From Escherichia phage nataliec, in sequence record MN850611.1: a DNA stretch of 64,000 nt, one strand, 5' to 3'. This document shows, in pieces, positions 17,916 to 42,340 of this stretch. The notes beneath the pieces were generated by a model. It worked only from the letters and a program-made list of their open reading frames with translations, ran no database searches and was not told where the DNA came from. Made by a program: the position numbers and the translations under genes. The first letter of the stretch is position 1. The number at the start of each line of letters is the position of its first letter.

Positions 17916-25931
<8,016 letters not shown>

Positions 25932-25933
25932 TA

Positions 25934-27082
25934 ATGGCAGTAGGTGAAATTCAAATTAGTGCCTTGCCTCAAGCAGCCTTACCAATTGACCTTAGTGATA
26001 TCTTCCATCTTAAACAGGGTATCGAGGATAAGAGATGTACTCTTGAGCAATTACTTGCTCCACACTCAAGCCTAAGAAATAACCCTCATGGTGTTACTAA
26101 GACACAAATTGGTCTAGACAATGTTATTAATGCTCTTCAGTTAGTTGCTGCAAATAACTTATCAGATATTGTTAATGTAGCTGAGGCAAGAGCAAATCTA
26201 CAGATTATGTCTTCAGAAGAGGTTAATAGCCTTATTCAACAGCATATTAATGACAAGAGCAACCCACACAATACAACTAAGGCACAGGTTGGTTTAAGTA
26301 ATGTCCAGAACTGGACAACATCTAACCTTTATAATGAAGATGCAGATAAGTATGCTACAGCAAGAGCAGTAAATAACTTGTACAAGGCTGTTCAGGCTTC
26401 TTATCCAGTAGGTACTATCCATCTCTCTATGAATCCTGCAAACCCCTCTACATATTTAATTTGTGGAGGCACTTGGGAGTTAGTCTCAAAAGGGAGAGCA
26501 CTTGTAGGTTATGATAGTGATTCTAGGCCAGTTGGTTCAACGTTTGGTTCACAGACTACTGCACTGACGGCTAATAACATCCCTGCACATACCCACTCAG
26601 TGTATGTCACTGGTGGTGGTCACACTCATGGTGCAACTGCCTCTATCAGTGCTTTTGATTATGGCACTAAAGGGACTACAACGTTTGACTACGGAACCAA
26701 GACCGTATCTACTTACGACTATGGCAACAGAACAACAAGTGCCGCTGGCTTAACACAAACAACATTCATTAACCGTGGCTATGCTGATGGTGGCTGGAGA
26801 GGTTTATCGGTTGAGGGGGCAAGCTATGACCCAAGAGCTACGTTGACAACAGCTAACAACCACACTCACTCTGTAGCAATTGGTGCGCATAATCATACGG
26901 TTGGTATTGGTGCTCACAGCCATTCTGTTGCAATTGGTTCCCACAGCCACTCAGCAACAGTAACAGTAACCGGAGCAGGTGAGCATTCGCACTCTGGCAC
27001 AACTGGTCCAACTGGTTCTGGTCAAGCATTTAGCGTTGAACAGCCATCCTTCGTATTGTATGTATGGCAGAGAACAGCTTAA
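25934..27082 (+). CDS. tail fibre protein with His-rich (HxH) C-terminal tip domain
   Basis: repeated HTHS/HSHS/HNHT motifs and 'FDYGTK' repeats; C-terminal '...AFSV.Q..F.LY.W.RTA'. Confidence 0.65.
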   Translation: MAVGEIQISALPQAALPIDLSDIFHLKQGIEDKRCTLEQLLAPHSSLRNNPHGVTKTQIGLDNVINALQLVAANNLSDIVNVAEARANLQIMSSEEVNSLIQQHINDKSNPHNTTKAQVGLSNVQNWTTSNLYNEDADKYATARAVNNLYKAVQASYPVGTIHLSMNPANPSTYLICGGTWELVSKGRALVGYDSDSRPVGSTFGSQTTALTANNIPAHTHSVYVTGGGHTHGATASISAFDYGTKGTTTFDYGTKTVSTYDYGNRTTSAAGLTQTTFINRGYADGGWRGLSVEGASYDPRATLTTANNHTHSVAIGAHNHTVGIGAHSHSVAIGSHSHSATVTVTGAGEHSHSGTTGPTGSGQAFSVEQPSFVLYVWQRTA

Positions 27083-27091
27083 TTTCTTTAC

Positions 27092-27112
27092 AGGGGCTGT
27101 ATAGCCCCTTTT
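27092..27112 (+). terminator. Rho-independent terminator
   Basis: ggggct-gtat-agcccc + TTTT. Confidence 0.55.
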
Positions 27113-27128
27113 AAGAGGAAAATTTATA

Positions 27129-29468
27129 ATGGCAGATTACAAGTTGAGTGAATTAAACTCAATTGATACAATTCGTTCAGACGACCTCCTTCATGTCAGG
27201 GTTAAAAAGAGACCTGAAATGCTGGGTGATGAAGACCGTCGAATGACCTATCAAGACTTCTTAGCATCTTTTAAACTAGAAAGATTTGTCCAGATTGCTG
27301 GTAGCACTATGACGGGTGACTTAGGAATTGTCAAGTTACTTTATGGTGGTAAGGCAGTATTTGACCCTACAGGTTCTTCTGAGATTACTATGGGGGATGT
27401 TTTAAAGGCTTTTAAAATCAATGCAAATGGTCTTAAACTAACTATTGCAGATGCTTCAAGGTCTGCAACTGTTTATCATACTCTTAATAAGCCAAGTCCT
27501 AATGAACTTGGGATGAGAACTAATGAAGAGAATGATGCAAGATATGCAAGACTGGCTGTAAATAACACCTTTAGAGCCACTCAAAATATTCTATCTGATA
27601 ATGAAACTATTATTGTTAAGAATGTTACACAAGGGATGCCGCTGTATATTCGCGGTCAAGATGCAGATGGCTCTAACAGGTGGTATCTAGGCAATGATAA
27701 CAAAGGTACAGACAATCTTGTTTTAAAAAATGTTAAATCTGGTGCATATGTAGCTATTTTGGATAGCTTAATCACTGTGAACAAATCTATCCAGATTACT
27801 GGTCAAGTTCAGCCTTCTGACTTCTCTAACTTAGATGCTAGATACTTTACTCAGACAGCAGCTAATCAGAGATTTGCGCAGCTAGTTGGTAATAACACCT
27901 TCAGAGGTATTAATAATTTTGTAGGTGAGTTCAATATTACCAGAGATAATGCTGTGCTAGTTATTAAAAATGCCTCTGATGCAACTGGACTATACCTGCT
28001 TGGTCAGAAAGCTGATGGGACAAACAAGTTCTACTTAGGGACTGATAACTCTGATTCTGTAGTCAACCTACATAACTACACCACGAGTACAACTATCTCT
28101 TTGTCAAATGTGATTACCACTACTAAGACTGTGAAAATCACTGGTCAAGTTCAACCTTCAGATTGGGCTAACATTGACTCTAGATATATTCCGGCAGCAA
28201 CATTAAGTACGATTGCAAGAACTAATGGAAGTAACACGTTCACTGCAAAGCAGGTTATTAACACTAATGGTGAAGCTCTCGTGTTACAAGGAAAATCAAC
28301 CTCCGCACTTTACATTAGGGGTAAGGATTATGATGGAACGAATAGGTGGTATGTTGGCAATGACGACGGCAGTGACACTGTTAGTTTGTATAACTATAAA
28401 ACTGGTAAAAGCCTAAGCATTGGTTCCGAAGTATCAATTAATGCAAACTTAGTAATTAGTGGTCAAGTACAACCTAGCAACTTCACAAACTTTGATGCAA
28501 GGTATTACGGTAAAGCCGAAGCCGATTCAAAGTATTTCTGGTCAGCATTCAGAGCTTCGAAGACCGAGGCTGCTGGTGGTGTGGCTTGGGACCAACCCTC
28601 AGGAATCTATCTTGAGACAAAATCTAGCGGGCAAAACCGTTTAGTCTTGCACATGGCCTCTAATGCGAAAGCCCTAACACCATCTGCACAATTAAGATTT
28701 GAATCGAAAAATGGTGGGATGTGGTACAGGTCAGCCAGAGACACACTTGGCTTTGAGGTTGAATGGTCTAAGGTTTACACTGAAGCTCAGAAACCTACCC
28801 CTTCAGAGATTGGTGCATACACTAAAGCTGAAACTGACCAGAAGATTGCAGAAGCAGTAAGTGACTCTACAGACCTTAACAAAATCTACCCAGTAGGCAT
28901 TGTAACGTGGTTTAACAGTAATGTTGACCCTAATACAGCACTGCCTGGCCTAACTTGGACGTATCTGAATAATGGTGTTGGTAGGACTATTAGAATTGCA
29001 GCAGCAAATGGTTCAGATGTTGCTACAACTGGTGGTTCAGATTCTGTAACGTTATCTGTTGGTAACTTACCTTCACACACGCACAGTTTTTCTGCGACTA
29101 CCTCATCGTTTGACTACGGAACAAAAAACACTAACACGACTGGTGCTCACGCTCACTCTGTAAGTGGCTCTACTTCATCTGCTGGTAACCACAACCATTC
29201 CATTTCGTGGATTGGTCAGAACTCTACACACTACTCTGGTGGTGGTGGTGGTAGTATTGGTGTAGGACCGGGTTACACCAATGCTAACGGTGCTCACACC
29301 CACTCTGTAAGTGGTACTGCCGCTTCTGCTGGTAACCATGCTCACAGTGTTGGTATTGGTGCTCACAGCCATACAGTTAGTGGCAACACTGGTGGTACAG
29401 GTTCTGGTTCAGCATTTAGTGTTACTAACCAGTTCTACAAGTTAATGGCTTGGGTGAGAACTGCTTAA
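27129..29468 (+). CDS. long tail fibre protein with three internal ~110-aa repeats and C-terminal HxH tip domain paralogous to previous gene
   Basis: repeated '...NTFR...ITGQVQPSD(F/W).N.D.RY' modules; C-terminus 'HTHS...AHSH...SAFSV.NQFYKLMAWVRTA'. Confidence 0.7.
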   Translation: MADYKLSELNSIDTIRSDDLLHVRVKKRPEMLGDEDRRMTYQDFLASFKLERFVQIAGSTMTGDLGIVKLLYGGKAVFDPTGSSEITMGDVLKAFKINANGLKLTIADASRSATVYHTLNKPSPNELGMRTNEENDARYARLAVNNTFRATQNILSDNETIIVKNVTQGMPLYIRGQDADGSNRWYLGNDNKGTDNLVLKNVKSGAYVAILDSLITVNKSIQITGQVQPSDFSNLDARYFTQTAANQRFAQLVGNNTFRGINNFVGEFNITRDNAVLVIKNASDATGLYLLGQKADGTNKFYLGTDNSDSVVNLHNYTTSTTISLSNVITTTKTVKITGQVQPSDWANIDSRYIPAATLSTIARTNGSNTFTAKQVINTNGEALVLQGKSTSALYIRGKDYDGTNRWYVGNDDGSDTVSLYNYKTGKSLSIGSEVSINANLVISGQVQPSNFTNFDARYYGKAEADSKYFWSAFRASKTEAAGGVAWDQPSGIYLETKSSGQNRLVLHMASNAKALTPSAQLRFESKNGGMWYRSARDTLGFEVEWSKVYTEAQKPTPSEIGAYTKAETDQKIAEAVSDSTDLNKIYPVGIVTWFNSNVDPNTALPGLTWTYLNNGVGRTIRIAAANGSDVATTGGSDSVTLSVGNLPSHTHSFSATTSSFDYGTKNTNTTGAHAHSVSGSTSSAGNHNHSISWIGQNSTHYSGGGGGSIGVGPGYTNANGAHTHSVSGTAASAGNHAHSVGIGAHSHTVSGNTGGTGSGSAFSVTNQFYKLMAWVRTA

Positions 29469-29547: not shown

Positions 29548-29742
29548 ATGCCTACAATCCTAGCAATTCTTCTAAAAAATCTAGGTAGCTTCTTCTGGAA
29601 ACTCATTTTATCCCTTCTAAGTGAATACATGATTGAGAAAGTGTTCTTTAGGCTTGCAAGATACCTTGCGAGTAAGACAGACACACCTATTGATGATGAG
29701 TTCGTAGATAACTTAGAAAAAGCTTTTAAGGGGGAGAAATAA
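29548..29742 (+). CDS. hypothetical small membrane protein
   Basis: 64-aa ORF, hydrophobic N-terminus. Confidence 0.4.
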   Translation: MPTILAILLKNLGSFFWKLILSLLSEYMIEKVFFRLARYLASKTDTPIDDEFVDNLEKAFKGEK

Positions 29743-30114
29743 ATGAAGTGGCTAGAGGAAGCTTTTAAAAATAATATTGGTGCAATTGTAGTTGGTATTT
29801 TTAGTGTTATTGGGATGTATACCACCATGCAAGTTTCGGATGGTAAACAAGAAGTGTCTATCACAACAAAGTTGCAACAGCTAGATAATTATTCCAAAAG
29901 CAATTATTCAGCTATTCGTGATTTACAATCTGATATGAGGCTGCTTCAGCTAGGGATGGAGAACCAGAAAGTCCAGTTAGAGAATGTTAAGGGAGAGAAC
30001 GCAAAACTTACTAAGACTCTTGATAAATTCTCTGATAGTGTTAACAATCTGGCTCAATCAGTATCAGCCCTCCAAGCTATTACTGAAAAGAACACAAAGA
30101 ATACTGAAAAATAA
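29743..30114 (+). CDS. hypothetical membrane-anchored coiled-coil protein
   Basis: N-terminal TM helix (IGAIVVGIFSVIGMY) then coiled coil. Confidence 0.45.
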   Translation: MKWLEEAFKNNIGAIVVGIFSVIGMYTTMQVSDGKQEVSITTKLQQLDNYSKSNYSAIRDLQSDMRLLQLGMENQKVQLENVKGENAKLTKTLDKFSDSVNNLAQSVSALQAITEKNTKNTEK

Positions 30115-30120
30115 AATTTT

Positions 30121-30150
30121 AAGGCTCCTTTTTACGGGAGCCTTTTTTGT
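30121..30150. terminator. bidirectional Rho-independent terminator between convergent genes
   Basis: ggctcc-tttttacg-ggagcc flanked by T runs on both strands. Confidence 0.6.
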
Positions 30151-30152
30151 TT

Positions 30153-31052
30153 CTACTTACCTACTGACAAAGGTGCTTCAATCTTTCCTGCATGTTGGTA
30201 GTTACTAATTCCACCGATAAAGTCACTTGCAGTAAGATGTTTCAGGTCACTTAAAGTATTAAGTTGTAGACCAATCTCAAAAGTTGGTGCATGGAACTCT
30301 TCATTGTTCATCAGTTCATAAACCTGCTTCATATGATTCTGATAAATCTGAGTATCTCCAAAGACACCTATCAAGTACCGTGGAGTGTATCCAGTCATCT
30401 TACAAAGAACTTCCAGAATAAAACCATAAGATGCAATATTAAACGGAAGTCCTAAAAAGGTGTCTACTGAACGCTGATACCACTGTAAGTCAACTTCACC
30501 CTCGTTAGTAATATAAATCTGAAACAGAACATGGCAAGGTGCTAGAGCCATTGAGTTTGCTGCAATATCTGCTGCATTCCAAGCATTCACAAGCATGTAA
30601 CGGTCTGTGATATCACCCTTCATCTTCGTTACTAAGGTCTCTAGCTGGTCTACAACACAACCGTTATGACCTTCAAAGTTTCTCCACTGAACCCCGTAGA
30701 TTCTCCCGCCTGCATCTTCTAACCAGTCTTGTTCAGAAGAATAGTTAGAACTTAACCAGCGTTTAAAATCATCTGACCAGATAGTCCAGCGTTCTCCATC
30801 ATTTTCACCCCAAGTACGGTAACGGAGTTCACCAAGCTTATTCTCACCATTCAGGAACCATAAAGCTTCCCCAATAACTTGCCGTGTAAACACCTGTTTA
30901 GATGTTAAGAGTGGGAAACCAGTACGCATGTCAAAACGAAACTTCGGTGGAGCAAATGCAGAGATAACATCTCCAGTTCGTGTAGTACGCAGTTCACCAA
31001 CTGATAAAACATGGTTCAGGATATTTTTGTAGCTTGTATCTGCTTGTGACAT
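30153..31052 (-). CDS. thyA: thymidylate synthase
   Basis: active-site motif 'MALAPCHVLFQ'; ~300 aa. Confidence 0.85.
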   Translation of the reverse strand: MSQADTSYKNILNHVLSVGELRTTRTGDVISAFAPPKFRFDMRTGFPLLTSKQVFTRQVIGEALWFLNGENKLGELRYRTWGENDGERWTIWSDDFKRWLSSNYSSEQDWLEDAGGRIYGVQWRNFEGHNGCVVDQLETLVTKMKGDITDRYMLVNAWNAADIAANSMALAPCHVLFQIYITNEGEVDLQWYQRSVDTFLGLPFNIASYGFILEVLCKMTGYTPRYLIGVFGDTQIYQNHMKQVYELMNNEEFHAPTFEIGLQLNTLSDLKHLTASDFIGGISNYQHAGKIEAPLSVGK

Positions 31053-31053
31053 A

Positions 31054-31599
31054 TTAAAAGTGCCCTTTTACTTGTGGAACATAAATTTCAAAGGTTGCTT
31101 TACCATCCTCTGATGGTTTTGACTGTACCTTTGTAAATACACGGTTATCATACAGCTTCTCAAAGAAGTTTTCAAAAGGTAAATGCACAGTGGCCTCTTC
31201 AGTAACTTTATGGAAAACTGTATGGAAAACTACACCAGCATACGGCAAAGCATTGACAAGAACACCTGCACCACCAATTACAAAGACATCTTCATCAATA
31301 GAGCTATCAAGATACTTCAAAAATGCTCCAAATGACTCTTTACTGGCTTTAGCATACATTACATCATCTTTGCCAAAGTCTATGCCTAAGTATGGTACAG
31401 AATTTGTTAAGACAAGGTTTGCACGTTCTGGTAAAGGTTTACTACCCAGAGTCTTAAAAGTCTCATTACCCATGACTACTAAGTTATTTTTAGTGAGTCT
31501 CTTAAACTCTTGCATGTCCTGTTTATGTCGAGGCCACGGCATACCAGTCGGTGTACCAAATTCACCGTTTTCACCACTTGCAAATATTAGTTTAATCAT
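31054..31599 (-). CDS. dihydrofolate reductase
   Basis: 'MIKLIFASGENGEFG...MPWP' and 'VFVIGGAGVL' DHFR motifs; adjacent to thyA. Confidence 0.8.
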   Translation of the reverse strand: MIKLIFASGENGEFGTPTGMPWPRHKQDMQEFKRLTKNNLVVMGNETFKTLGSKPLPERANLVLTNSVPYLGIDFGKDDVMYAKASKESFGAFLKYLDSSIDEDVFVIGGAGVLVNALPYAGVVFHTVFHKVTEEATVHLPFENFFEKLYDNRVFTKVQSKPSEDGKATFEIYVPQVKGHF

Positions 31600-31856
31600 T
31601 TTGTAAACCCTTTCTTAATGAACCAGTTGATGACACTCTTCACAAATTTACTACGATGGTAGATAAAATGTGGAGAGGGTTGGTATGAACCATAAGCCCA
31701 GAAAGCGATAATTTCATTACACCCTGTGCATCGGGTACTTTCTTCAGCAATATGACCGTTGACTATTTCATTTACCTCACCTTGTAAGTCTGTACACCCA
31801 CAATGTGGACAACGGATAGGTGTTCCATCAGACTCATAGCAGTGTTCAATTTTCAT
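31596..31856 (-). CDS. small zinc-ribbon protein
   Basis: CPHCGC...CTGCN Cys4 pattern. Confidence 0.45.
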   Translation of the reverse strand: MKIEHCYESDGTPIRCPHCGCTDLQGEVNEIVNGHIAEESTRCTGCNEIIAFWAYGSYQPSPHFIYHRSKFVKSVINWFIKKGFTK

Positions 31857-32372
31857 CTATTTAACCTCAAAAACTGGCTCAAGAACCAATATAAAGTCTA
31901 CACAGTCATCTTCTTCATCCAGAACACCATCAAAGTTCTTAGGAACGAAGTCGAAGAGGCTCATAACAAAACAGTCAGAAGTGACCCTGATAGTTCCTCC
32001 CATGTTCTCTACAGTTAACACTGTACGACTTTCTTTTACCTCCCTCAGAAGATTACCCACAAAGTCATCCAAGAAGTACTTCATTAGTGACTTAAAACCT
32101 TTAGGGTAATCTGTACCAGAGTATGTTTCAATCTGGGGAACAAGCTTAACATTTATACTAGTCTTTGTTAAGAATGTATTAGAGAACATACTATCAGGTA
32201 ACTTACAAACAGTCTTTCCAGTACCTTCATGTTCAATCTCAACAAAACCAGCTTCATCGCCACATGTAACTATTTTAAAAGATGCTTCATTCTCATACTG
32301 TGAAGCCATAAACTTTTTAAGCATCACTTTAAGGAAGTCTGCATGAGCATCTTGTAAGAAGATATCAATCAT
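31857..32372 (-). CDS. hypothetical protein
   Basis: track ORF in co-directional tight array. Confidence 0.45.
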   Translation of the reverse strand: MIDIFLQDAHADFLKVMLKKFMASQYENEASFKIVTCGDEAGFVEIEHEGTGKTVCKLPDSMFSNTFLTKTSINVKLVPQIETYSGTDYPKGFKSLMKYFLDDFVGNLLREVKESRTVLTVENMGGTIRVTSDCFVMSLFDFVPKNFDGVLDEEDDCVDFILVLEPVFEVK

Positions 32373-32385
32373 AGTTAATCACCTA

Positions 32386-32745
32386 TTATGGGAACAAGCA
32401 CTTAATGTCATCGTTTTTGAAAACAAAACTTGTGTAGTTATGACCATCAACATCCAGCCAAACAGCCTGAACATCTACACCATCAAGATTCTGGTAAAGT
32501 TCTTTGATGAAGTGGTCTTTCACAATCTGACTGCTAGTTGTTTCCAGCTTAATGTTCGAGATTGCTGAACCTACAGCCATATAGCCCATGACACGTTTCT
32601 TCTCAGTATGCTTAATCTTACCATCTTTGTAAGCCATAATGAGATTGGAAAGAATCTTTACACCATAATACTTTTCAAGGTGAGTAGGTACACCATAAAA
32701 GCCTAATGCGAAGTTTTCAGAGTGGATAATGTTTTCACGTTTCAT
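32386..32745 (-). CDS. hypothetical protein
   Basis: track ORF. Confidence 0.45.
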   Translation of the reverse strand: MKRENIIHSENFALGFYGVPTHLEKYYGVKILSNLIMAYKDGKIKHTEKKRVMGYMAVGSAISNIKLETTSSQIVKDHFIKELYQNLDGVDVQAVWLDVDGHNYTSFVFKNDDIKCLFP

Positions 32746-32746
32746 A

Positions 32747-33076
32747 TTAGTCTGCCAACCTTAAATTGAAATTAACACCAAATTTTTCACATACTTCCAA
32801 CATATACTCAAGGGAAACATTACCAGTGAGGTGGATTATGTTGGATACACGAGCCTGAGAGATACCACAAATTTTAGCAACTTGCTCTTGAGAAAGACCT
32901 CTTGATTTAATCTCTCTCTTAAAACGATGTGCAACGAAGTCTCTCATTTCGTCTACATCCATTGGACAAACATAACTCTCCATTTCAGCCTCTCTATCAG
33001 CCTCCCAATCATCTTGTGGAGCATAAGGGTCAAAAGCCTCATTCATCTTTCTTCTTCCGTTTGCGTGAAGTGTCAA
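32747..33076 (-). CDS. HTH (XRE/Cro-like) DNA-binding protein
   Basis: helix-turn-helix 'LSQEQVAKICGISQARVSNIIH'. Confidence 0.6.
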   Translation of the reverse strand: MTLHANGRRKMNEAFDPYAPQDDWEADREAEMESYVCPMDVDEMRDFVAHRFKREIKSRGLSQEQVAKICGISQARVSNIIHLTGNVSLEYMLEVCEKFGVNFNLRLAD

Positions 33077-33251
33077 TCAATGAATCTATGTTTGTAGCCC
33101 TAACCTTTTCACGTTCATCGTTAAGATAATCATCAAGAGCCTTTTCAATCTGTGAATCATCTTGGCAGATAACTGTAAAGACTGTAAAGCCATCTGTATC
33201 ATCAATTATCTTACCATAACCGCTTCTGGGATGTAACTTTTTAAGAGCCAT
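33039..33251 (-). CDS. hypothetical small protein
   Basis: track ORF, overlaps upstream gene start. Confidence 0.35.
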   Translation of the reverse strand: MALKKLHPRSGYGKIIDDTDGFTVFTVICQDDSQIEKALDDYLNDEREKVRATNIDSLIDTSRKRKKKDE

Positions 33252-33252
33252 A

Positions 33253-33636
33253 TCAAATACCTGTGCAGCTTCTGTTTTCTAAGAAATACTCAACACCGTA
33301 CATAGCTTTTTGCATCAAATCTTCTTTAAACTGGATACGATGGTTGAGCATAGCTTGTACATCAATATCGTCACGGTGTTTCTCTTTAATGTTTGCAGAT
33401 TGCAGGAAATACTCTGCAAGAACACGATATTGATAGTCAGTTACCTTATCAGTCATCTCTGTCAAAGACTCTTCAGAGATTGGTTTAAGTAACTCACCAT
33501 TAGCTAGAGCGACACCTTTTACAATCTGGCAAGTGTCTTCTGGAACACCTGATAAGTCCACATTTGGGAGTTCTGTTGCATTGACTGGTAAATTCATTGC
33601 CATAACCATTGCAGCAGCTAATAAAATCTTTTTCAT
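33253..33636 (-). CDS. secreted/periplasmic protein with signal peptide
   Basis: N-terminus 'MKKILLAAAMVMAMNLPVNA' signal-peptide-like. Confidence 0.5.
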   Translation of the reverse strand: MKKILLAAAMVMAMNLPVNATELPNVDLSGVPEDTCQIVKGVALANGELLKPISEESLTEMTDKVTDYQYRVLAEYFLQSANIKEKHRDDIDVQAMLNHRIQFKEDLMQKAMYGVEYFLENRSCTGI

Positions 33637-33720
33637 AATGACCTCAAAGTTATATTAAATTTTGTATTACATTGAGTATAAAAATAAGCTATAACACCTG
33701 ACTTGTCAACAGATTTTATA

Positions 33721-34125
33721 GCTTATTTGGCAGATTTTTTATAAGGCTACTGCCATCCTTCCATACCAAACCCTACCGAACAGAACCATGCTTTGCCATA
33801 CTGGACAACACCTGACCAGACATCACTTAAAAACCCTTTTCAAAGACTCTTAAGTGATGTAATCGAATTTTAATGTAGCTCCGATTAACTACCCATACCT
33901 TGCATTACTTCACCAAACCATACATTACCAGACCATGCCACACCTGTCCAAACTCAACCTCATTAAAAGACCCTCTTTAAAGACCTTTTAATAAGGTAAG
34001 TCTCATTTTTATGTAGTTGAGACTAACTACCCATACCAGACCCTACCTTACCAAACCAGACCTCACCCTACCCCACCATACCGTATACTACCTCATTAAA
34101 AGACCCTGTTTAAAGACCTTTTAAA
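33721..34125. repeat. three tandem ~130-bp intergenic repeat units (CA-rich on plus strand) each ending in a palindromic motif
   Basis: recurring 'tttttat..gtagct..actacccatacc...[CA-rich]...cat(c/t)a(c/a)ttaaaa(g/a)accc' units; palindrome catcacttaa(33820-33829)/ttaagtgatg(33849-33858). Confidence 0.6.
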
Positions 34126-34146
34126 AAGGAGCCTCCGAAGAGGCTA
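34121..34146 (-). terminator. Rho-independent terminator (minus strand)
   Basis: gcctc-cgaa-gaggc hairpin followed on minus strand by CCTTTTTAA. Confidence 0.5.
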
Positions 34147-34156
34147 CCCAGTCAAC

Positions 34157-34597
34157 TTAGAAAGGTTTTCTGCGTTGCTTGTTAATGTTAGCTTTCATAG
34201 CAGCTAAATGGTTTTGCTGTTCAATCAGTCGTGAACGTTCTTGATGGCTAAGTGCCATAGTGTTCACATTCTCAATCGCTTGAGTGGCTTGCTTTAAAGC
34301 ACGACCAATCTTACCAGACATTTTGCGTTTTGCAATAGTTGCTTGATGCTTAGGTTCGACAACACGATAACCAACACCCATTGAAGCAACCAGATAAATC
34401 TTCTCTTCTTTAAGAAGCTTCTCAATAAACTTCTCAAGTCGGTTTAGACGTGTAAGTGCATAAGCCTTCATTTCATCTTCGTACTTAACAATGTCACCTT
34501 GATAGGTTGGCTTCACAATACCTAAGAAGGTATCCATCTCAGAATGTGATACAGTGTCACCGTAACTAAACTTTGCTGCTAATGCTTTTGTATTCAT
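34157..34597 (-). CDS. hypothetical protein
   Basis: track ORF. Confidence 0.45.
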   Translation of the reverse strand: MNTKALAAKFSYGDTVSHSEMDTFLGIVKPTYQGDIVKYEDEMKAYALTRLNRLEKFIEKLLKEEKIYLVASMGVGYRVVEPKHQATIAKRKMSGKIGRALKQATQAIENVNTMALSHQERSRLIEQQNHLAAMKANINKQRRKPF

Positions 34598-34599
34598 AA

Positions 34600-35205
<606 letters not shown>

Positions 35206-35269
35206 TTAGTTGATTGTTAAGTTGTTTGTAAAGAACCCTCAACAGAAGACTCTTTAGAAACTTGGTAGA

Positions 35270-35440
35270 TTTTTAACGTGGCTACTACCATCCACCCATA
35301 CCTCACCTAACAACACCTAACAACACAAAACTACACCCCACACCACCGCACCACACCAAACATCACTTAAAAACCCTCTTAGAAGACCCTTAAGTGATGC
35401 TGGTGAGTACCCGTTGGTTTATGCTGCTCAGTATACTCAC
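35270..35440. repeat. fourth copy of the CA-rich intergenic repeat unit with the same terminal palindrome, plus 8-bp inverted repeat ggtgagta/tactcacc
   Basis: catcacttaa 35360-35369 / ttaagtgatg 35388-35397; ggtgagta 35401-35408 / tactcacc 35433-35440. Confidence 0.55.
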
Positions 35441-35464
35441 CAAATTTTCTATGTCAACAACTTT

Positions 35465-36568
35465 TTATTCGTAGTCTCGAATAACTAACCCAACAGGGAA
35501 CTGTAAAGACCCCTTACGAGTCATCTTCTGGAACTGAACCGTTAAAGGCTTCCCGATAAACTCTTCAGGATGCTCAGCAAGATACTGTTTCTTCTCATGA
35601 GTAGTCTTCCATGAGACATCTACAAAGACATTAGGGAGAGTCTCTACAACGAACTTTCCATGACCACGTTTATCGGTCTTGACACCAGTCACTTTAAACT
35701 CTTCAGTGTGCATCTTCTTATGCTTAATCAAGAAGTATGAACGGTGACCACACTCGTAGAAAGATTCTTCAGAGATTGAGCGGTACATTGCACCTTCAAA
35801 CTTAGCTTCAACCCACTTATCATGAGCTTCATCAAACTCTTCCCAAGAATTTACACGACGAGATTTAACAGGAACAACTTTACAACCGTCTCTAAAGTCA
35901 TTCAATGGTGAAGTCTCAATAATATCTCTACGCTCAGGCCACGTCTTAGTGCTGTCACAGATATCGTACCAGTAAAACTTGAGTAAATGTCGGTCAGGAT
36001 TGTCTTCATTTTTAATCATGGAGACAATATCTTCTAAGTCCTGCCCATGAGCATAGATTTCACCATCAAACTCATCAACATCTTTGTGGAGCCTCAACAT
36101 TGCCATAATGTCAGGTATTAGTTCAGTAGGGATTTTATAAACAGTATTCTCACGAGAGTATGCTGTAAATACACTACTGATGCTCAAGTGTCTTGAAATT
36201 CTACAACGTACACCATCCAGTTTCGGTTGAGCATCAGCAGGGAACTTCAGGTACTTTGCATGGCTAACCTTTGCAGCATCATGAGCAAGCTGTACACCAA
36301 CTTTCTCAGTATTCTGTGCAGACTCTTTTGTGTAAGCATAACCTTTACGGTCAACTTGCTTTTTATACTTAGCAGCAACTTCAAAGAGAGCTTGCTGTTC
36401 AGCATTACGCTCATTCTTTTTACCGATGTTTTTAGCTTCTGCTGTATACTCTTCAAACATCATCTTGCCATTTTCTTTACCGTAGGTTGTAATAACTTTG
36501 TCACCTACAGCAACACATGACCAGACGTTAAAAGAGCCGTCTTTATTTTGTTTGTACAGAATTGTCAT
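35465..36568 (-). CDS. ATP-dependent DNA ligase
   Basis: adenylation motif I 'KLDGVRC', 'FDGEIY', 'EGAMYRS', 'KHKK'; ~90-aa N-terminal extension. Confidence 0.7.
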   Translation of the reverse strand: MTILYKQNKDGSFNVWSCVAVGDKVITTYGKENGKMMFEEYTAEAKNIGKKNERNAEQQALFEVAAKYKKQVDRKGYAYTKESAQNTEKVGVQLAHDAAKVSHAKYLKFPADAQPKLDGVRCRISRHLSISSVFTAYSRENTVYKIPTELIPDIMAMLRLHKDVDEFDGEIYAHGQDLEDIVSMIKNEDNPDRHLLKFYWYDICDSTKTWPERRDIIETSPLNDFRDGCKVVPVKSRRVNSWEEFDEAHDKWVEAKFEGAMYRSISEESFYECGHRSYFLIKHKKMHTEEFKVTGVKTDKRGHGKFVVETLPNVFVDVSWKTTHEKKQYLAEHPEEFIGKPLTVQFQKMTRKGSLQFPVGLVIRDYE

Positions 36569-36870
36569 TTTCTCTTACCACCAATCTCTACGTCGATAAC
36601 TTGAACATCGCCAGCAACATCAAACTTATGTATGATGCTTTCCACAGTATAAGTCCAACCATCAATGCGAACCATCTCACCTTCTCGTGGAACTATTGGA
36701 TTACGTTGAGCTACAGTTGTAGTGGAGTGAACAACATCATAACGATAGATATAGTTTACTAGGACTTCCATCGTGAAAACCTCACTCAATAACCGTAGTA
36801 TGTGATTGTCCATTTTTGCCATAGCTGTAAGATGTTGTTGTTTGAGAGTTTGGACATCTGACAACAACAA
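36565..36870 (-). CDS. hypothetical protein (start uncertain; may begin at internal Met near 36771)
   Basis: track ORF overlaps 3' end of lipoprotein gene by ~88 nt. Confidence 0.35.
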   Translation of the reverse strand: MLLSDVQTLKQQHLTAMAKMDNHILRLLSEVFTMEVLVNYIYRYDVVHSTTTVAQRNPIVPREGEMVRIDGWTYTVESIIHKFDVAGDVQVIDVEIGGKRK

Positions 36871-37042
36871 TATCTCTGCTTATAGCATCACCATGTAACT
36901 TGTATACTCTGCAATCTTGCATCTCTGGTGGGAGGCTATAAGAAGCATTTTTATCTTCATAAGAAGGGTTGCAGCCAGATAGAAAAATAACACCAAGCGC
37001 AATCACCACTTTCCACATAACACTACTCCTATTACTGTTCAC
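36782..37042 (-). CDS. putative lipoprotein
   Basis: signal peptide plus lipobox 'VIFLSGC'. Confidence 0.55.
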   Translation of the reverse strand: MNSNRSSVMWKVVIALGVIFLSGCNPSYEDKNASYSLPPEMQDCRVYKLHGDAISRDIVVVRCPNSQTTTSYSYGKNGQSHTTVIE

Positions 37043-37274
37043 GATGTTCTACTTCTCTGTACGTTCGTCGATAGTATATAATAAGCTGTGCTAACTCGTT
37101 GCTTTTAACATCTGAACGTAGCAGTTGCCAATCAAAACCTTTACCGACTCTTCCATATAAACTAAACAGTTTTACTTTGCGTTTCATTTTGGTATACCAA
37201 TACTCAGAAGTCAATATTAATACGTTCGCCCTTAAGGACTCCAGTACGGTCTCTTGCAATCTTGCCGTCAACAA
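37032..37274 (-). CDS. hypothetical small protein
   Basis: track ORF; overlaps neighbour, start uncertain. Confidence 0.3.
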   Translation of the reverse strand: MLTARLQETVLESLRANVLILTSEYWYTKMKRKVKLFSLYGRVGKGFDWQLLRSDVKSNELAQLIIYYRRTYREVEHREQ

Positions 37275-37431
37275 TAAGGATATGTGCAGCCCTTAAAGAG
37301 TCACTATTAAAAGCTTTTACGAACTTACTAGGCATCACTACAATGGGCATCTCCTGAATCAACTCTGGAGTATAGCAATTGTCGTGAAGTTGCTGAATAA
37401 CGTCTGCAAGTGTCATTTTTGATGTCTCCAA
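37204..37431 (-). CDS. hypothetical small protein
   Basis: track ORF. Confidence 0.3.
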   Translation of the reverse strand: METSKMTLADVIQQLHDNCYTPELIQEMPIVVMPSKFVKAFNSDSLRAAHILIVDGKIARDRTGVLKGERINIDF

Positions 37432-37622
37432 TACTCAATGTCAATAAGTTCTTGTGCAATGCTTTTCAGATTACCTTTCAAGAAAACCTTCTCAGAACCT
37501 GAAAGAGATGAATTGTCAATTAACCTGTTCATTCTCTCAAACAACTTCTGCTTACGGTTCTTGATAGTTTCCTTTGAAGCACCTTTCATCATCGCTGCAT
37601 GGGTTCTTCCACGGTGACTCAT
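37413..37622 (-). CDS. hypothetical small basic protein
   Basis: track ORF. Confidence 0.35.
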   Translation of the reverse strand: MSHRGRTHAAMMKGASKETIKNRKQKLFERMNRLIDNSSLSGSEKVFLKGNLKSIAQELIDIEYWRHQK

Positions 37623-37673
37623 AAGCCCTCCTATACAAGATACAGTATAAGGTACTCTTCCCTGAGCACCTTG

Positions 37674-38177
37674 TCAACTTAGTTTTGCAAACTCTCCGTG
37701 GAGTTTTACAGCAGCTTCACAGTAAGCTTTATGGGCTTCTTCAGGGGTGTCAAATAAGCCAAGTGATGTCCTTTTACCTCTACATGTTATAGCAGCCCTC
37801 CATTTATTACAGTCTTTAAAGTAATGCACACCCTTGTAACCTGATTTGTTAGCTGTCTGCTTCACCCTGTTTTGGGCGTTTCCATACTTATCAGTCTCCC
37901 TAAGATTAGAGATATGATTATTACTCCTGTTACCATCAATGTGGTCTATCATCTTAGTGGGCCTGTAACCATGTTCGAACCACCAAACGAGGTGATGAAC
38001 TTTTATTACGACACCTTTGAATTTAAGTACTTTGTAACCATAAGCATCACTTCCTCCGGCAACCTGTCCAGCTTTAGCTTGTCTATTCCTGTCATACTTG
38101 TTGTAGAAGACCCCTTTGTCGGGGTCGTAAATAAAATTATCCTTGTAATCTTGAAGTGTTAGTGTACGGCGTACCAT
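37674..38177 (-). CDS. HNH homing endonuclease with AP2-like DNA-binding domain
   Basis: 'HHLVWWFEHGYRPTKMIDHIDGNRSNNHISNLR' HNH_3-type motif; C-terminal 'YKGVHYFKDCNKWRAAI...LGLFDTPEEA' AP2-like. Confidence 0.7.
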   Translation of the reverse strand: MVRRTLTLQDYKDNFIYDPDKGVFYNKYDRNRQAKAGQVAGGSDAYGYKVLKFKGVVIKVHHLVWWFEHGYRPTKMIDHIDGNRSNNHISNLRETDKYGNAQNRVKQTANKSGYKGVHYFKDCNKWRAAITCRGKRTSLGLFDTPEEAHKAYCEAAVKLHGEFAKLS

Positions 38178-40888
38178 GTCTTACCTACCTTACCAGTGCC
38201 TGTAACAAGTGTCTTACTCTTTAATCCAAGATTTTTTGATGCTTGACCATACATTCTATCAATAATCTCCTTAACATCAGGTACATCTTTTGTTGGAACC
38301 TCTAAAGAGACCTCATCGTGGTAACTACAGACCCACCTAGCACCAATAGCTGGTTTCCTACCATTTAGGACTGTAAGCTTGCGCTCTGTTAACTCTCTGT
38401 TAGCCAAGTTAATACCCTCATTCTGCACCTGAGCCTCACTGCCCATAAGTGTGTAATTCAATAACTTATGTGGAGATTTACACCATAACCACGCTCCAGC
38501 AACTTTGATGTACCCACCTTTCGCAATTGCAGAAGTTTTTCCAAAAACCTCTTCAAGTGCTTTCTTAGTTGCTTTGAAGTCTTCCTCTAGTCTATCAAGC
38601 AGCTTTTTAATCTTAGGGAGACGCACAAAGTAAGTTTGTTTAGTCAATGCACCTTCTTCCGTAGATGATGCCTTGATAGTTTTTGCAAACTTCTCGTCTC
38701 CGGCTCCAAATAATAGGGCGTAGATACCATTCTTAGCCTTCTTACGGCCTTTTGTAATCTCGTGAAGAAGTTCCTCATCCTGTGTCTCCCTACAACGAAC
38801 AATATCTTCTTCCTTGTTCAGACCAAAGTAAATGCTGTTCAGTGTATGTGCATCAGTACCTGTGTAGACTTCATAGAGGTCATTCTCAGCATCATAACGC
38901 AGATACTTGTCAGTTTCTGGGTTAAGATACTTGTCAAGATGCTTGCAGTAGTATCTACCATCATCTTGCTTAGTGAACTCAACTGACTCTTTACCCTCAG
39001 TTACCGCTTTAGTGAAGTCTTCATCACCCATAAAGTTACAAAGAAGAACTAGCTGGGCTGAGTTTTGGTCTACGGAGATGATATCTGTACCATCTTCACA
39101 AGTCCACACCTCCCTCATAGGTGCTCCATAGACAGCAGCACCAGACGGTACGTTTACAATACCATACTGAGTCATACGTCCAGTTGAAGTACCAAATACC
39201 ATTGCACCAGCACTAAGGCGACCATCTGGACGAATCTGGTTCAACCAACCTTTTTCATCATCCTTTGAGTTCTCAATAGTTCTGCGTCTGTGCATCAAAG
39301 TGTAGTATTTCGCAATCTTCTGTCCAAGCTCACCTTCAATCGTATCATAAGATGATTCAGTAAGTTTTGGTGAAGTACGGATTAAGCAAGGCTCAAGCAA
39401 ATCTGTGTACTTCTTCACAGACCAGTTATGTTCAATGTACTGTACACCTTCATGTTCAACATAACTCAAACCACACCGCTCAACCATTTCCTGCCACTTA
39501 GGATGCTTTGTAATCATCTTTTTATTGTCTTTGAAACGACAAACTTTGACAGGGCGACCATCTGAGTCTTTCTTGTAGTTCCAGTCATCTGGAATCCAAC
39601 CAACTGACTTCAAGTAGTCTTTAACAACTGCTACCTGAGTCATACGAGAAACTTCAAACTCAATTGGTGTATATGGTGCATCAATCAAACCTGTGTAGCG
39701 ACTTGACTCAAGTTCAAAGTGGTTAACAACGTGGCTGTTATAGTACTTCACAGTTTTGACTGTTTTTACTGGCTTCCAGTCTTTGCACTTCTTACCAATC
39801 TTTGCATTCAACTCATTGCAAATTGCACGAGCATCCTTCATTGCTACAAAACCTTCCTTGTATTCTTCACCAGTTACAGAGTTGGTTGGTGTATAGCAAT
39901 TCCGCTTTTCAATGTTAAAAATCTTTGTAGTTGGCTTACCAAATGGCTTGATTTCGTATGTCTGCATCTCACCGTTACGCACCTGTTGACGATACTTTGT
40001 CTTAGGATACTTGGTAATTCTCTTCAGTCCATCTGCATGACCGAATGTTTCAACATACTCATTCCAAGCTTTTGCAAACTCTTCTCCAGTGACTTTACCT
40101 TTGGTCTTAATAGTTGGAGGAAGGTGTGGTTCAACCTCTGAAGCAAGCTCATTAGTCAACTTGTCAAGTTCCTTTACATGGAACTCCATAAGCTCTTTAT
40201 CAGCTTTCCAACCATTGATAGCTTGTTGACTCATCCAGAAAGATGTTTCTTTAGCTCGCATGTAAGTCTCATAAGTGTCTATACCACACTTCTTAAGCTT
40301 GAGATACTCGTTATCAAGTGCCCGTTTAGTTTTGGCGTTAATACGGATATCTTCTACAACACGAGTGAAGATTTCTGCATTCCACACACCCCAATGTTCA
40401 ATCTCTGGTTTACGGACACCAACACGAGCACCCCATGCAGCCAAACCATGAGCACCTTTATAACCCTTTGGAGTTGGTCTATCCATCCACTGAACACGAG
40501 ACTGGATAAGAGAATCCTGAAAGAAATTACTCCACGGCTTACACTTTGGATTATCAAAGTTCCATAAATCAGGTGCAATGTGATTGAAAACCCACCAGTC
40601 ATAACCGAGACCGTTATGGATGCAAAGACGTTTTGCCTTTAGCGCAAACTCAATACCTTCACGTAAGCCACCCTTAATGTACTTAGTGTACTTGTGACCG
40701 AGGATAGGTTCATCTGTAAAGACCCATACAGGTGGCTCTTCATCGTCAGATTTATAGTCTGCGAAAGCCATTACGTGCACTTTAGTGAACTCAAGGAGTA
40801 AACCATCAGTTTCTGTATCACCAACCAAATGTAAGTTTTTAAAATCTACGTTTTCCATTTTTACTCCCTCTAAAATCATTAACCTCAT
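38159..40888 (-). CDS. DNA polymerase, family A, with N-terminal 3'-5' exonuclease-like domain
   Basis: 909 aa; motif B-like 'KKAKNGIYALLFGAG', motif C 'SYHDEVSLEV'. Confidence 0.8.
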   Translation of the reverse strand: MRLMILEGVKMENVDFKNLHLVGDTETDGLLLEFTKVHVMAFADYKSDDEEPPVWVFTDEPILGHKYTKYIKGGLREGIEFALKAKRLCIHNGLGYDWWVFNHIAPDLWNFDNPKCKPWSNFFQDSLIQSRVQWMDRPTPKGYKGAHGLAAWGARVGVRKPEIEHWGVWNAEIFTRVVEDIRINAKTKRALDNEYLKLKKCGIDTYETYMRAKETSFWMSQQAINGWKADKELMEFHVKELDKLTNELASEVEPHLPPTIKTKGKVTGEEFAKAWNEYVETFGHADGLKRITKYPKTKYRQQVRNGEMQTYEIKPFGKPTTKIFNIEKRNCYTPTNSVTGEEYKEGFVAMKDARAICNELNAKIGKKCKDWKPVKTVKTVKYYNSHVVNHFELESSRYTGLIDAPYTPIEFEVSRMTQVAVVKDYLKSVGWIPDDWNYKKDSDGRPVKVCRFKDNKKMITKHPKWQEMVERCGLSYVEHEGVQYIEHNWSVKKYTDLLEPCLIRTSPKLTESSYDTIEGELGQKIAKYYTLMHRRRTIENSKDDEKGWLNQIRPDGRLSAGAMVFGTSTGRMTQYGIVNVPSGAAVYGAPMREVWTCEDGTDIISVDQNSAQLVLLCNFMGDEDFTKAVTEGKESVEFTKQDDGRYYCKHLDKYLNPETDKYLRYDAENDLYEVYTGTDAHTLNSIYFGLNKEEDIVRCRETQDEELLHEITKGRKKAKNGIYALLFGAGDEKFAKTIKASSTEEGALTKQTYFVRLPKIKKLLDRLEEDFKATKKALEEVFGKTSAIAKGGYIKVAGAWLWCKSPHKLLNYTLMGSEAQVQNEGINLANRELTERKLTVLNGRKPAIGARWVCSYHDEVSLEVPTKDVPDVKEIIDRMYGQASKNLGLKSKTLVTGTGKVGKTWYAVH

Positions 40889-41115
40889 ACATTACTGCAA
40901 AAAATTATAAAAAGCAAGTTGACAATGCACTTGACAAGGTGTTAATCTTTGCGAAGTGGGTTTTTACTTAAAAGGTTACTTAACAGTTTAACTATACAGA
41001 TACTTTAAAACTCTTAAAAGATTATTTAATAGCTTTTAAAAAGCTTTAAAGTATAACGTATAGAATACGTTAAGATAAAAGATTAAAACTTAATAGTTAC
41101 TTAAAAGAGGCTTAC
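40889..41115. promoter_or_regulatory. divergent AT-rich control region between DNA polymerase (-) and plus-strand block; TTGACA boxes and repeated 'tacttaaaag' motifs
   Basis: TTGACA at 40919 and 40931; direct repeats of (t)tacttaa(a)ag at about 40967, 40978, 41095. Confidence 0.4.
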
Positions 41116-41538
41116 ATGCAGAAAATGTTTGTTCACCCAGACATAGCTGACTTTGTTAGAGCTTTGCAGAAGTTGGAAGAACTTGACATTGCTGCTCAAC
41201 GGGAATATGCTCACCATCACAGGAGAATGGTTGATATACAACATGAAATAGAGTTATCTGAAAACTATGAAGATGACTTAAAATGCTCTGTATTTGAGCA
41301 TATGAAAGATGTTGCTACAGCGAGACGTAAAGCTAAAGACACAGTTGCTTTACTAGATTCTCTTAAAAAGAGGTTGCAAAGTGGTACAGACCTGTGTAAT
41401 CTAGCGTCACTGATTAACGATGTTGAAACTTCTTGGGATAGGCACTATTATCCACGTTCTGAAAAGACACTTGACTTTTCTTCATCCGAAAACTTAAAAT
41501 GTTCTAGAAAGAAACTTAACCAACTGAGAGAGAAATAA
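41116..41538 (+). CDS. hypothetical protein
   Basis: track ORF. Confidence 0.45.
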   Translation: MQKMFVHPDIADFVRALQKLEELDIAAQREYAHHHRRMVDIQHEIELSENYEDDLKCSVFEHMKDVATARRKAKDTVALLDSLKKRLQSGTDLCNLASLINDVETSWDRHYYPRSEKTLDFSSSENLKCSRKKLNQLREK

Positions 41539-41539
41539 T

Positions 41540-42340
41540 ATGAATATCGATGTAGAAAAGATGCTTGAAGAAAAAGGTATTGACGAAGCATTTTTAATCA
41601 ATGCCGTAGAAAGTATGGCTATGATTCTTCGTGGGAACAACTACACAGAACAGTTTATGCCTTCAAGCTATAACTTGCCTGAAGACAAGTCTGATAACGG
41701 TGCTTTTGCAGAACAGGTTAACATGATGTTGACAGACACTACACTTGCTCTGGCATCTATTGCGGTTGGTGTTGATGCACTTGCTGAGTTCATTTTTTAT
41801 GAAATGCAAAAGAATGACTATATCAGGATGTCAGACGAAGATAAGGAACTGTTGCTGACTAAGGACACTGATTTCATTATTGATACGCTTATCTCATCAA
41901 CAAGTGCTGTTATGGCTGCTCTTGAGAAGCGTATGGAAGAGAAACTTTCACGGTATGAAAAGCTTGATTGGGGCGTAGAAGAATTAAGCCCACGAATCAA
42001 GGAGATTATCCAGCAAACTAAAGAGTCTTTGGAAGAAGCTGTTGAAAATGACTCTGTAGCTGATATAGAACCACTTCAGGTGAAAGTTGCACTGATGATT
42101 CCAGCTATCTCTACGATGATGAATATCGTTGCACTAATCCAACTTTCACAGATGATGGGTATGAGTATTGAGTTCATTGAGGAGATGACTGGCGGTGTCA
42201 GTATGCAAGCAATCAATGATGTTTTGGTGAATATTGGTGCTTCAATCATTGAAGAGAAACTACGCATTAACTTCGGTGATGATTTTGTGAAGCAAATCTC
42301 AGCTATGGCTGAAAAAGAGTCTGCTGAGCAACTGCACTAA
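41540..42340 (+). CDS. hypothetical protein
   Basis: track ORF followed by terminator. Confidence 0.45.
   Translation: MNIDVEKMLEEKGIDEAFLINAVESMAMILRGNNYTEQFMPSSYNLPEDKSDNGAFAEQVNMMLTDTTLALASIAVGVDALAEFIFYEMQKNDYIRMSDEDKELLLTKDTDFIIDTLISSTSAVMAALEKRMEEKLSRYEKLDWGVEELSPRIKEIIQQTKESLEEAVENDSVADIEPLQVKVALMIPAISTMMNIVALIQLSQMMGMSIEFIEEMTGGVSMQAINDVLVNIGASIIEEKLRINFGDDFVKQISAMAEKESAEQLH

Follow-up and report, generated by a model that had tools for sequence, protein, structure and literature searches.

In the 64,000-nucleotide stretch of Escherichia phage nataliec (MN850611.1) analysed here (the window), two plus-strand open reading frames (ORFs) lie at 25934-27082 (382 aa) and 27129-29468 (779 aa), where the original prediction had placed a pair of tail-fibre genes. 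Both are indeed tail fibres. The shorter product (short tail fibre, STF) matches the tail fiber family phrog_2097 (E=1.5e-128) and is 98.7% identical to gp26 of Bas63 (Escherichia phage JohannRWettstein), the longer product (long tail fibre, LTF) matches phrog_4277 from end to end (E=0, 1-779 of 780) and shows 100% identity with the nataliec tail fibre, and the two carry tail-fibre annotation in every relative. In a megablast comparison with phage records, 235 matched the window, nearly all of them Felixounavirus, with humlepung as the closest (96.9%). The window contains the order wedge 2, wedge 1, LTF platform, STF, LTF, small ORF, holin-like ORF and convergent thyA, and a comparison of annotations with the window ORFs gave the same gene order in Bas63, humlepung, Seyj1-1 and Sf18. 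The features of the locus, with the evidence in brackets, are:

23300-24769, plus strand: baseplate wedge 2 (Baseplate_J, PF04865, E=5e-16; wedge PHROGs phrog_6 and phrog_4017)
24772-25629, plus strand: baseplate wedge 1 (wedge PHROGs phrog_6 and phrog_4017)
25629-25931, plus strand: "LTF platform" of 100 aa, homologue of Bas63 gp25 (phrog_4141, E=2.6e-62)
25934-27082, plus strand: STF, 382 aa, homologue of Bas63 gp26 and Sf14 gp52 (ORF and homology)
25934-26383, plus strand: STF residues 1-150, putative N-terminal baseplate-binding and shaft part (motifs, conservation)
26384-26578, plus strand: STF collar, residues ~151-215, gp10_C/gp37-collar type (PF21939, PDB matches)
26579-27079, plus strand: STF needle enclosing the head, with seven HxH motifs (HxH positions, 2XGF alignment)
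26720-26857, plus strand: STF variable head, residues 263-308 (between needle strands)
27129-29468, plus strand: LTF, 779 aa, homologue of Bas63 gp27 and Sf14 gp53 (ORF and homology)
27129-27557, plus strand: LTF residues 1-143, putative N-terminal baseplate-binding domain and first shaft domain (near invariant)
27558-28544, plus strand: LTF tandem shaft repeats R1-R3 (self-alignment, DNA repeats, PF20744)
28545-28868, plus strand: LTF fifth shaft domain, residues 473-580, Mu/P2/P1 gpS type (PF12604, 8JU3)
28869-29465, plus strand: putative LTF receptor-binding tip with six HxH motifs (2XGF, PF03335, PF21939), made up of collar (581-648), needle up strand (649-692) and needle down strand (721-779)
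29205-29288, plus strand: LTF head, residues 693-720 (between needle strands)

The 100-aa platform protein agrees in position and length with bas63_0025. In Bas63, gp25 is the platform where the long fibre attaches; this platform binds wedge 1, and wedge 2 is bound by the STF (PMC12609058). No fibre chaperone was found 3' of the LTF gene, where the ORFs of 64 and 123 aa have no PHROG matches other than families of unknown function. A scan for promoters and terminators gave no excess over shuffled sequences; the sole convincing hairpin lies at 30121-30144, 3' of the 123-aa ORF. A literature search for the nataliec fibres found no paper, and a PDB sequence search with both fibres returned only 2XGF, 8JU3 and gp10, with no deposited structure of either fibre.

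The first 150 residues of the STF contain the motif NPH..TK.Q.GL.NV twice (50, 110) as well as EDKRCT at 31-36, and are 82-99% identical among the 10 relatives aligned. By analogy to the fibres described in the Bas63 and Sf14 papers, this part probably binds the baseplate and contributes to the shaft. Residues 154-259 match PF21939 (Gp10_C, E=9.6e-18, 65.9 bits versus a cut-off of 27), and the collar also matches gp10 (2FKK/5HX2) and 2XGF. The alignment to 2XGF covers residues 146-352 (E=5.2e-14) with the His boxes in register. In the STF needle (up strand 216-262, down strand 309-382), two of the seven HxH motifs (219, 230, 310, 319, 328, 337, 351) are located on the outgoing and five on the returning strand. 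The six of the LTF (650, 674, 688, 723, 737, 746) are divided three and three, and residues 638-758 match 2XGF with aligned His boxes (E=1.1e-17). The LTF tip also matches PF03335 and reaches 21.3 bits with PF21939, below the cut-off of 27. Multiple HxH motifs had been predicted for both proteins, as had the common ending ...AFSV...W.RTA, and both features are present in each. "FDYGTK repeats" had been attributed to both C-termini as well; such repeats do occur in the STF, with three similar motifs at 241, 251 and 261, whereas the LTF has a single one at 661. An AF2 monomer model of LTF 560-779, based on an alignment of 58 sequences, reached a mean pLDDT of 44.8, too low for use in a fold search, for a tip that is trimeric in the Bas63 models.

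The LTF begins with a nearly invariant region (residues 1-143, median pairwise identity 0.96 among 120 homologues) that carries an EDRRMT motif at 35-40. It is followed by three tandem repeats, R1 (about 144-253), R2 (about 254-366) and R3 (367-472), of ~105-113 aa each, every one of which consists of a variable beta-rich body and a conserved ITGQVQPSD..RY linker. The repeats had been correctly recognised in the original prediction, and its boundaries (145-250, 250-365, 365-480) were right within a few residues. BLASTP of the LTF against itself returned the identity match only, and segment-wise Smith-Waterman alignment with shuffles was used instead; pairwise scores were 179-224 versus a shuffle mean of ~31 (z=24-34). 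The repeats are also visible in the DNA, with a spacing of 318-348 nt, and PF20744 (gp37_trimer) matches three stretches (E=1.2e-54, 182.8 bits versus a cut-off of 21.7). The linker motif [QK]P[ST][PDN] occurs five times (121, 228, 342, 448, 555). A hidden Markov model (HMM) of R1-R3 detected no extra copy in the first (~55-143) or fifth (473-580) domain of the LTF and none in the STF; the reading of five domains therefore rests on the linker motif and on the published structure. The data fit a shaft of five domains, of which the middle three alone are recognisable as sequence repeats. Within the fifth, residues 481-581 match PF12604 (gp37_C, E=3.2e-14) and residues 483-573 match the Mu fibre S/S' (PDB 8JU3, E=1.1e-17); with tblastn, this domain was found in Peduovirus, P7 and Mu at 40-47% identity. 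In an AF2 monomer model of the repeat region, pLDDT was ~90 in each body. A Foldseek search of the PDB with this monomer model of a trimeric domain returned the T7 gp17 pyramid (4A0U, E=1.8e-3, rmsd 1.5 A, 66 columns) and T4 gp34 (5NXH, E=0.054), and nothing at E<=0.001. Both proteins are also named as shaft relatives in the Sf14 and Bas63 papers (PMC11821841, PMC12609058).

The diversity of the LTF was analysed in the 120 homologues closest to the window, out of 1036 at E<=1e-30, so that all cassette counts come from a biased sample. The HMM of the repeats matched exactly three times in 120/120 proteins. Thus, there is no ongoing expansion, and the proposal that repeat expansion underlies host-range variation found no support; the repeat number is without variation in the Bas63 paper, too (PMC12609058). 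What varies is which cassette occupies each position, not the copy number. Among the 120 homologues, median pairwise identity is 0.33-0.44 for the shaft bodies (R1-R3 and fifth domain), which fall into 11-12 types each, and the head falls into 13 types; the collar is invariant, with the N-terminus and collar at 0.96-0.99. The 120 proteins display 73 five-cassette combinations, the R1-R2-R3 combination of the window occurs once, and four-gamete quartets were found in every pair of repeat positions (13, 34, 20). Protein identities per segment between relatives are bimodal. On the DNA level, identity to single relatives switches between 93-100% and 32-57% at cassette borders, within one or two 60-nt windows, and in the LTF tip the breakpoints are located at the His boxes, near 29114 and 29354. 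Heads of different relatives either match almost completely or share about 20-30% identity, in line with the modular tips that had been predicted. The STF head is 100% identical among E. coli K-12 isolates and only 20-22% identical in pEP20, Seyj1-1, 3HA14, Sf18 and XTG1. Hence, from the sequence comparison, the shaft bodies and the head of the tip act as separate cassettes, with 11-13 types each, and their reassortment takes place at the His boxes and at the conserved linkers.

The two C-termini are related, as had been claimed. In BLASTP, STF 157-382 aligns to LTF 587-779 with 30% identity (E=2e-13), and Smith-Waterman alignment against 300 shuffles gave z=19.1 over the region of collar and needle; with the final 120 aa, z was 10.9. 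The needle composition is biased (for both tips, the 2XGF match carries an HMMER bias of 25-28 bits), and two Gly/Ser/Thr/His-rich tails might resemble each other by low-complexity chance, without common ancestry. However, the shuffles preserve composition and still leave z=11-19, the alignment also takes in AFSV...RTA at the C-terminus and the collar (YPVG...), which is not repetitive, curated Pfam models score above their cut-offs, and the His boxes are in register with T4 gp37. Chance similarity has next to no probability; the shuffle controls refute it, as does the match in the collar. The tips had also been called paralogous. A recent duplication in the lineage, or gene conversion that keeps the tips alike, with paralogues diverged for two receptors, would fit the adjacent genes, the domain order common to both tips and the DNA stretches of 43-49 nt with 79-80% identity that both genes share in the His-box and C-terminal parts. 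However, these stretches are limited to motifs conserved across the whole tip family, and the tips score 55 bits with each other (29% identity) versus 62 bits (STF) and 76 bits (LTF) with T4 gp37. Neither tip is thus closer to its neighbour than to T4 gp37, a tip from another phage family, and the two do not stem from a recent duplication. Moreover, the two-fibre arrangement also exists in Mooglevirus (Sf18, 3HA14), and any duplication would thus be older than the subfamily. On the bit scores we reject recent duplication or gene conversion, which we consider improbable; paralogy in the sense of a within-genome duplication is not supported. The homology to the iron-binding 2XGF instead supports the conclusion that STF and LTF both carry a His-rich tip of the T4 gp37 type, which would be receptor-binding, as had been proposed.

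For the shaft, it might be speculated that the variable bodies are binding surfaces themselves, for example for lateral contact with O-antigen or other glycans, and that they are under diversifying selection, with cassettes altering the host range directly. The bodies are as variable as the head, next to the conserved N-terminus and collar, the R1 and R3 positions share cassette types with up to 80% identity, and the lack of shaft conservation was "unexpected" to the Bas63 authors (PMC12609058). On the other hand, humlepung, bumzen and tootiki, all isolated on E. coli K-12 MG1655, differ in their shaft cassettes and have near-identical heads, which argues that the shaft type is dispensable for host choice there, and recombination alone predicts mosaicism at conserved linkers. 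We regard a direct effect on host range as unlikely. A little less likely again is that the LTF shaft is a five-locus combinatorial array, in which body types (11-13 at each position) reassort freely and even change places between R1 and R3, with a putative selected function, such as glycan binding or escape from host factors, and not a passive spacer. If true, this would explain the head-like variability of the cassettes beside a conserved sheath.

On the sequence homology, the motifs counted, the repeats and the mosaicism shown in this analysis, the gene pair very probably encodes the two lateral tail fibres of a Felixounavirus, one short and one long, with gp37-type tips, a five-domain LTF shaft and cassette diversity. 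That the fibres are trimeric, how they are placed and that they retract on the sheath is taken from the cryo-EM studies of Bas63 and Sf14, in which homotrimeric fibres sit on the baseplate and are folded back along the sheath (PMC12609058, PMC11821841). By homology with these phages, each nataliec fibre would be a homotrimer, with six of each per virion, and the N-termini would attach to the baseplate, the STF to wedge 2 and the LTF to the gp25-like platform. The C-terminal tip would comprise a collar followed by a needle of six strands and then a head, each chain running out along the needle, through the small head and back. Judging from motif conservation, each HxH contributed by three chains may coordinate one axial Fe, with seven sites in the STF and six in the LTF. 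The head lies between the inner His boxes and is the likely receptor contact. Bas63 is wholly dependent on an intact LPS core, and we infer that the LPS core is the likely receptor here as well. The outer core was proposed as receptor for Sf14 and shown for VpaE1 (PMC11821841); in the BASEL paper, the receptor of Felix O1 is described as still elusive. The LTF shaft would consist of five beta-rich trimeric domains, three of them tandem repeats, with short conserved linkers in between. Homologous recombination at linkers and His boxes would exchange bodies and heads as cassettes and create diversity without changes in repeat number; any functional effect of the shaft cassettes is inferred.

Felix O1-type phages are applied in Salmonella typing, food biocontrol and therapy cocktails, and their host range is set by STF and LTF. 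The fibre architecture is already known from the cryo-EM studies published in 2025, so that the original observation is correct but ordinary and the practical value of the present analysis is limited to three points. It provides a precise domain map of both fibres for the nataliec isolate, it corrects the view on the repeats, whose number is fixed and whose cassette identity varies, and it points to linkers and His boxes as natural crossover points that could serve as splice sites in fibre engineering. The contribution beyond published work, the cassette behaviour of shaft bodies and head, is small.

The closest known system is Bas63, for which cryo-EM revealed the architecture of both fibres, with gp26 as the 430-A fibre, five beta-helix shaft domains in the long fibre and seven HxH motifs in the short and six in the long fibre (Sci Adv 2025; PMC12609058). 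The fibre models are AlphaFold trimer predictions flexibly fitted to low-resolution density, with a 2XGF-like tip fold (PMC12609058). Bas63 and nataliec agree in genus, gene order, STF length (382 aa), HxH counts and the position of the three repeats. In contrast, the LTF of Bas63 has 784 aa and is 72% identical to that of the window (R1-R3 bodies 33-51%, fifth-domain body 57%), and the head-proximal box is HHxH in Bas63 and NHNH (687-690) in the window. The same architecture was described for the Shigella phage Sf14, a Mooglevirus, and both studies found a gp37-like collar-needle-head tip with HxH on both fibres (Commun Biol 2025; PMC11821841, PMC12609058). Like the window, Sf14 has two fibres (391 and 792 aa) whose domains are arranged in the same order, shaft domains resembling the T7 gp17 pyramid and the Mu fibre, a T4 gp37-like tip and the EDKRCT/EDRRMT motif pair near the N-termini; no chaperone homologues were reported (PMC11821841). 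Identities between Mooglevirus and the window, measured on Sf18 and 3HA14 and not on Sf14, are ~52% (LTF) and ~68% (STF), and the Sf18 and 3HA14 tips have four HxH in the LTF and nine in the STF.

The T4 gp37 tip (2XGF; Bartual et al., 2010) shares with the window the order of collar, needle and head, GxHxH in register, the FDYGTK motif and a C-terminal ...RxA. It has 7 HxH in total, and its head sequence is unrelated to the window heads. The T4 tip is mounted on a fibre of four proteins (gp34-37) and requires the chaperones gp38 and gp57A; unlike this, each window fibre is built entirely from one polypeptide. Mu, P2 and P1 gpS have one domain in common with the window, the fifth shaft domain of the LTF, but Mu and P2 fibres have a different tip and a separate chaperone (U or G). 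In T-even phages, recombination reportedly occurs at "His boxes", GxHxH motifs flanking variable adhesin segments, a model ascribed to Tetart, Desplats and Krisch (J Mol Biol, 1998). The identity breakpoints at the His boxes of the window tip resemble this model; unlike in T-even phages, however, the cassettes of the window extend to four shaft domains and are bounded by the ITGQVQPSD..RY linkers.

The short tail fibre (STF) and the long tail fibre (LTF) are encoded by neighbouring genes, which are followed by two small ORFs and a hairpin.

25934-27082, + strand: STF ORF, 382 aa
27129-29468, + strand: LTF ORF, 779 aa
within 29548-30144: small ORF 3' of LTF, 64 aa, phrog_402, function unknown
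within 29548-30144: small ORF 3' of LTF, 123 aa, phrog_4038, annotated as 'holin' in relatives
30121-30144: two-way terminator-like hairpin, after the two small ORFs and before convergent thyA and DHFR

The 'tail fibers protein' of Escherichia phage nataliec has the same sequence as the 779-aa protein (100% identity), which makes the window either that phage or an isolate identical to it. By megablast the region matched 235 phage records, nearly all Felixounavirus, with Escherichia phage humlepung as the best (96.9%); a few matches carry the names Campylobacter phage or Staphylococcus phage. In Escherichia phage JohannRWettstein (Bas63), gp26 is 98.7% identical to the 382-aa protein and gp27 72% identical to the 779-aa protein, and the gene order is that of the window: wedge 2, wedge 1, a 100-aa platform protein, STF, LTF, two small ORFs and convergent thyA and DHFR. 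Fibre followed by holin is an order reminiscent of g37-g38-t in T4. Neither a gp38-like nor a Tfa-like chaperone was found among the two small ORFs (29548-30144), and chaperone homologues were not found for Shigella phage Sf14 (PMC11821841).

Elsewhere in the window, a 207-aa protein (22258-22881) homologous to gp21 of the Bas63 puncture apparatus carries HTHH at residues 188-191, in agreement with the HxH iron site reported for gp21 (H188, H190), and is a third HxH protein of the same tail module. The + strand bears 24 clustered tRNA genes at 869-6213, as is typical for phages like Felix O1. GC skew is negative between about 30 and 40 kb and returns to positive values beyond about 42 kb (30000-42000 region); the first of these switches falls at thyA, where the genes change to the minus strand.

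The two proteins share their C-terminal tip. STF 157-382 aligns to LTF 587-779 with 30% identity (BLASTP, E=2e-13), and against 300 composition-preserving shuffles the Smith-Waterman score reached z=10.9 over the last 120 residues and z=19.1 over the entire collar and needle. HxH motifs number seven in STF and six in LTF, and both proteins end in AFSV...W.RTA. FDYGTK repeats had been claimed for both; this stands for STF, with three [FY]DYG motifs, but not for LTF, which has a single FDYGTK. Both tips match the T4 gp37 tip 2XGF in sequence, LTF at E=1.1e-17 and STF at E=5.2e-14, and their His boxes align in register with it; the STF collar additionally matches T4 gp10 and Pfam PF21939. The AF2 monomer model of the LTF tip has a mean pLDDT of only 44.8, as is expected for an intertwined trimer. 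In the N-terminal half of STF (25934-26383), the motif NPH..TK.Q.GL.NV occurs twice, at residues 50-68 and 110-128, 60 residues apart.

The LTF shaft contains three tandem units, R1 to R3, at residues 144-250, 254-365 and 367-472 (pairwise z=24-34), which correspond to three Pfam PF20744 matches and also repeat at the DNA level, with a spacing of 318-348 nt. The linker motif [QK]P[ST][PDN] is present at 121, 228, 342, 448 and 555, a pattern that fits five shaft domains; sequence comparison picks up only the middle three of these as repeats. Residues 483-573 have matches in 8JU3, the Mu fibre, and in Pfam PF12604. In an AF2 monomer model of the repeat region, every repeat body has a pLDDT of about 90. 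The best PDB matches of this model were weak, T7 gp17 (E=1.8e-3) and T4 gp34 (E=0.054), relatives that are also named in the Bas63 and Sf14 papers.

As an observation, the original prediction is confirmed; its interpretation is supported in part. Paralogy of the tips through a recent duplication within this genome is not supported, as each tip scores higher against T4 gp37 (62 and 76 bits) than the two score mutually (55 bits). Nothing indicates that the repeats are still expanding: exactly three repeat matches are present in 120/120 closest LTF homologues.

The window was compared with ten relatives and then with the 120 closest homologues. The LTF N-terminus (1-140) and collar (581-660) are almost invariant (median pairwise identity 0.96-0.99), whereas the R1, R2 and R3 bodies, the fifth domain and the head, the segment between the inner His boxes, are highly variable (0.29-0.44), with 11-13 types each at a 75% identity cut-off. 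DNA identity to individual relatives switches between 93-100% and 32-57% at linkers and His boxes, within one or two 60-nt windows. The R1 of the window is that of CL1 (100%) and bumzen (94%), and its R3 and fifth domain are those of humlepung and pEP20 (95-100%). The window's combination of three repeats is seen once in the set of 120 proteins, which includes 73 five-cassette combinations, and four-gamete quartets are present for every pair of repeat positions. Three cassette types were found at both R1 and R3, with identities of up to 80%, which hints at exchange between positions. In 12 of the 120 homologues a larger head replaces the two inner His boxes, leaving four HxH, and the fifth domain is longer in one homologue, that of phage momo. 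STF variation is confined to the head (263-308) and adjoining needle. Phages isolated on the same K-12 strain have their heads in common and different shaft cassettes, which suggests that on this strain the choice of host does not depend on the shaft type.

Two database entries deserve mention. An 82%-identical LTF homologue lies on an 88.4-kb NCBI contig labelled Methanobrevibacter gottschalkii, which most probably reflects contamination of an archaeal assembly by a Felixounavirus genome. In phage XTG1 (KT184316) a 10-nt 'cos site' is annotated inside the LTF gene (3137-3146 in the retrieved sequence), which looks like an annotation oddity.

The fibres would be trimers anchored on the baseplate, probably kept against the sheath until their release allows them to probe the cell surface, a model put forward for Bas63. 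By analogy with T4, Fe ions on the HxH boxes may stiffen the needle, and the head at its far end would contact the receptor. This is most likely the LPS core, since Bas63 is totally dependent on an intact core and the outer core was proposed or shown as receptor for relatives (PMC11821841).

The LTF cassette pattern matches tail-fibre mosaicism, a principle known for long, and agrees with the T-even 'His box' model. By cryo-EM, Bas63 gp26 is a 430-A short fibre and gp27 a 630-A long fibre; the tip of each resembles T4 gp37 and consists of a collar, an HxH needle and a head, the number of HxH being seven in gp26 and six in gp27 (PMC12609058). Within the genus, conservation is poor in the tips and, unexpectedly, also in the shaft repeats, the repeat number being unchanged (PMC12609058). 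The same fibre pair was described for Sf14, whose long fibre is related to the T7 gp17 pyramid domain, the Mu fibre and the T4 gp37 tip (PMC11821841). As these two papers describe the architecture, the essentials of the finding are already known; the cassette typing extends the remark on shaft variability in the Bas63 paper, and is an increment rather than a new kind of system.
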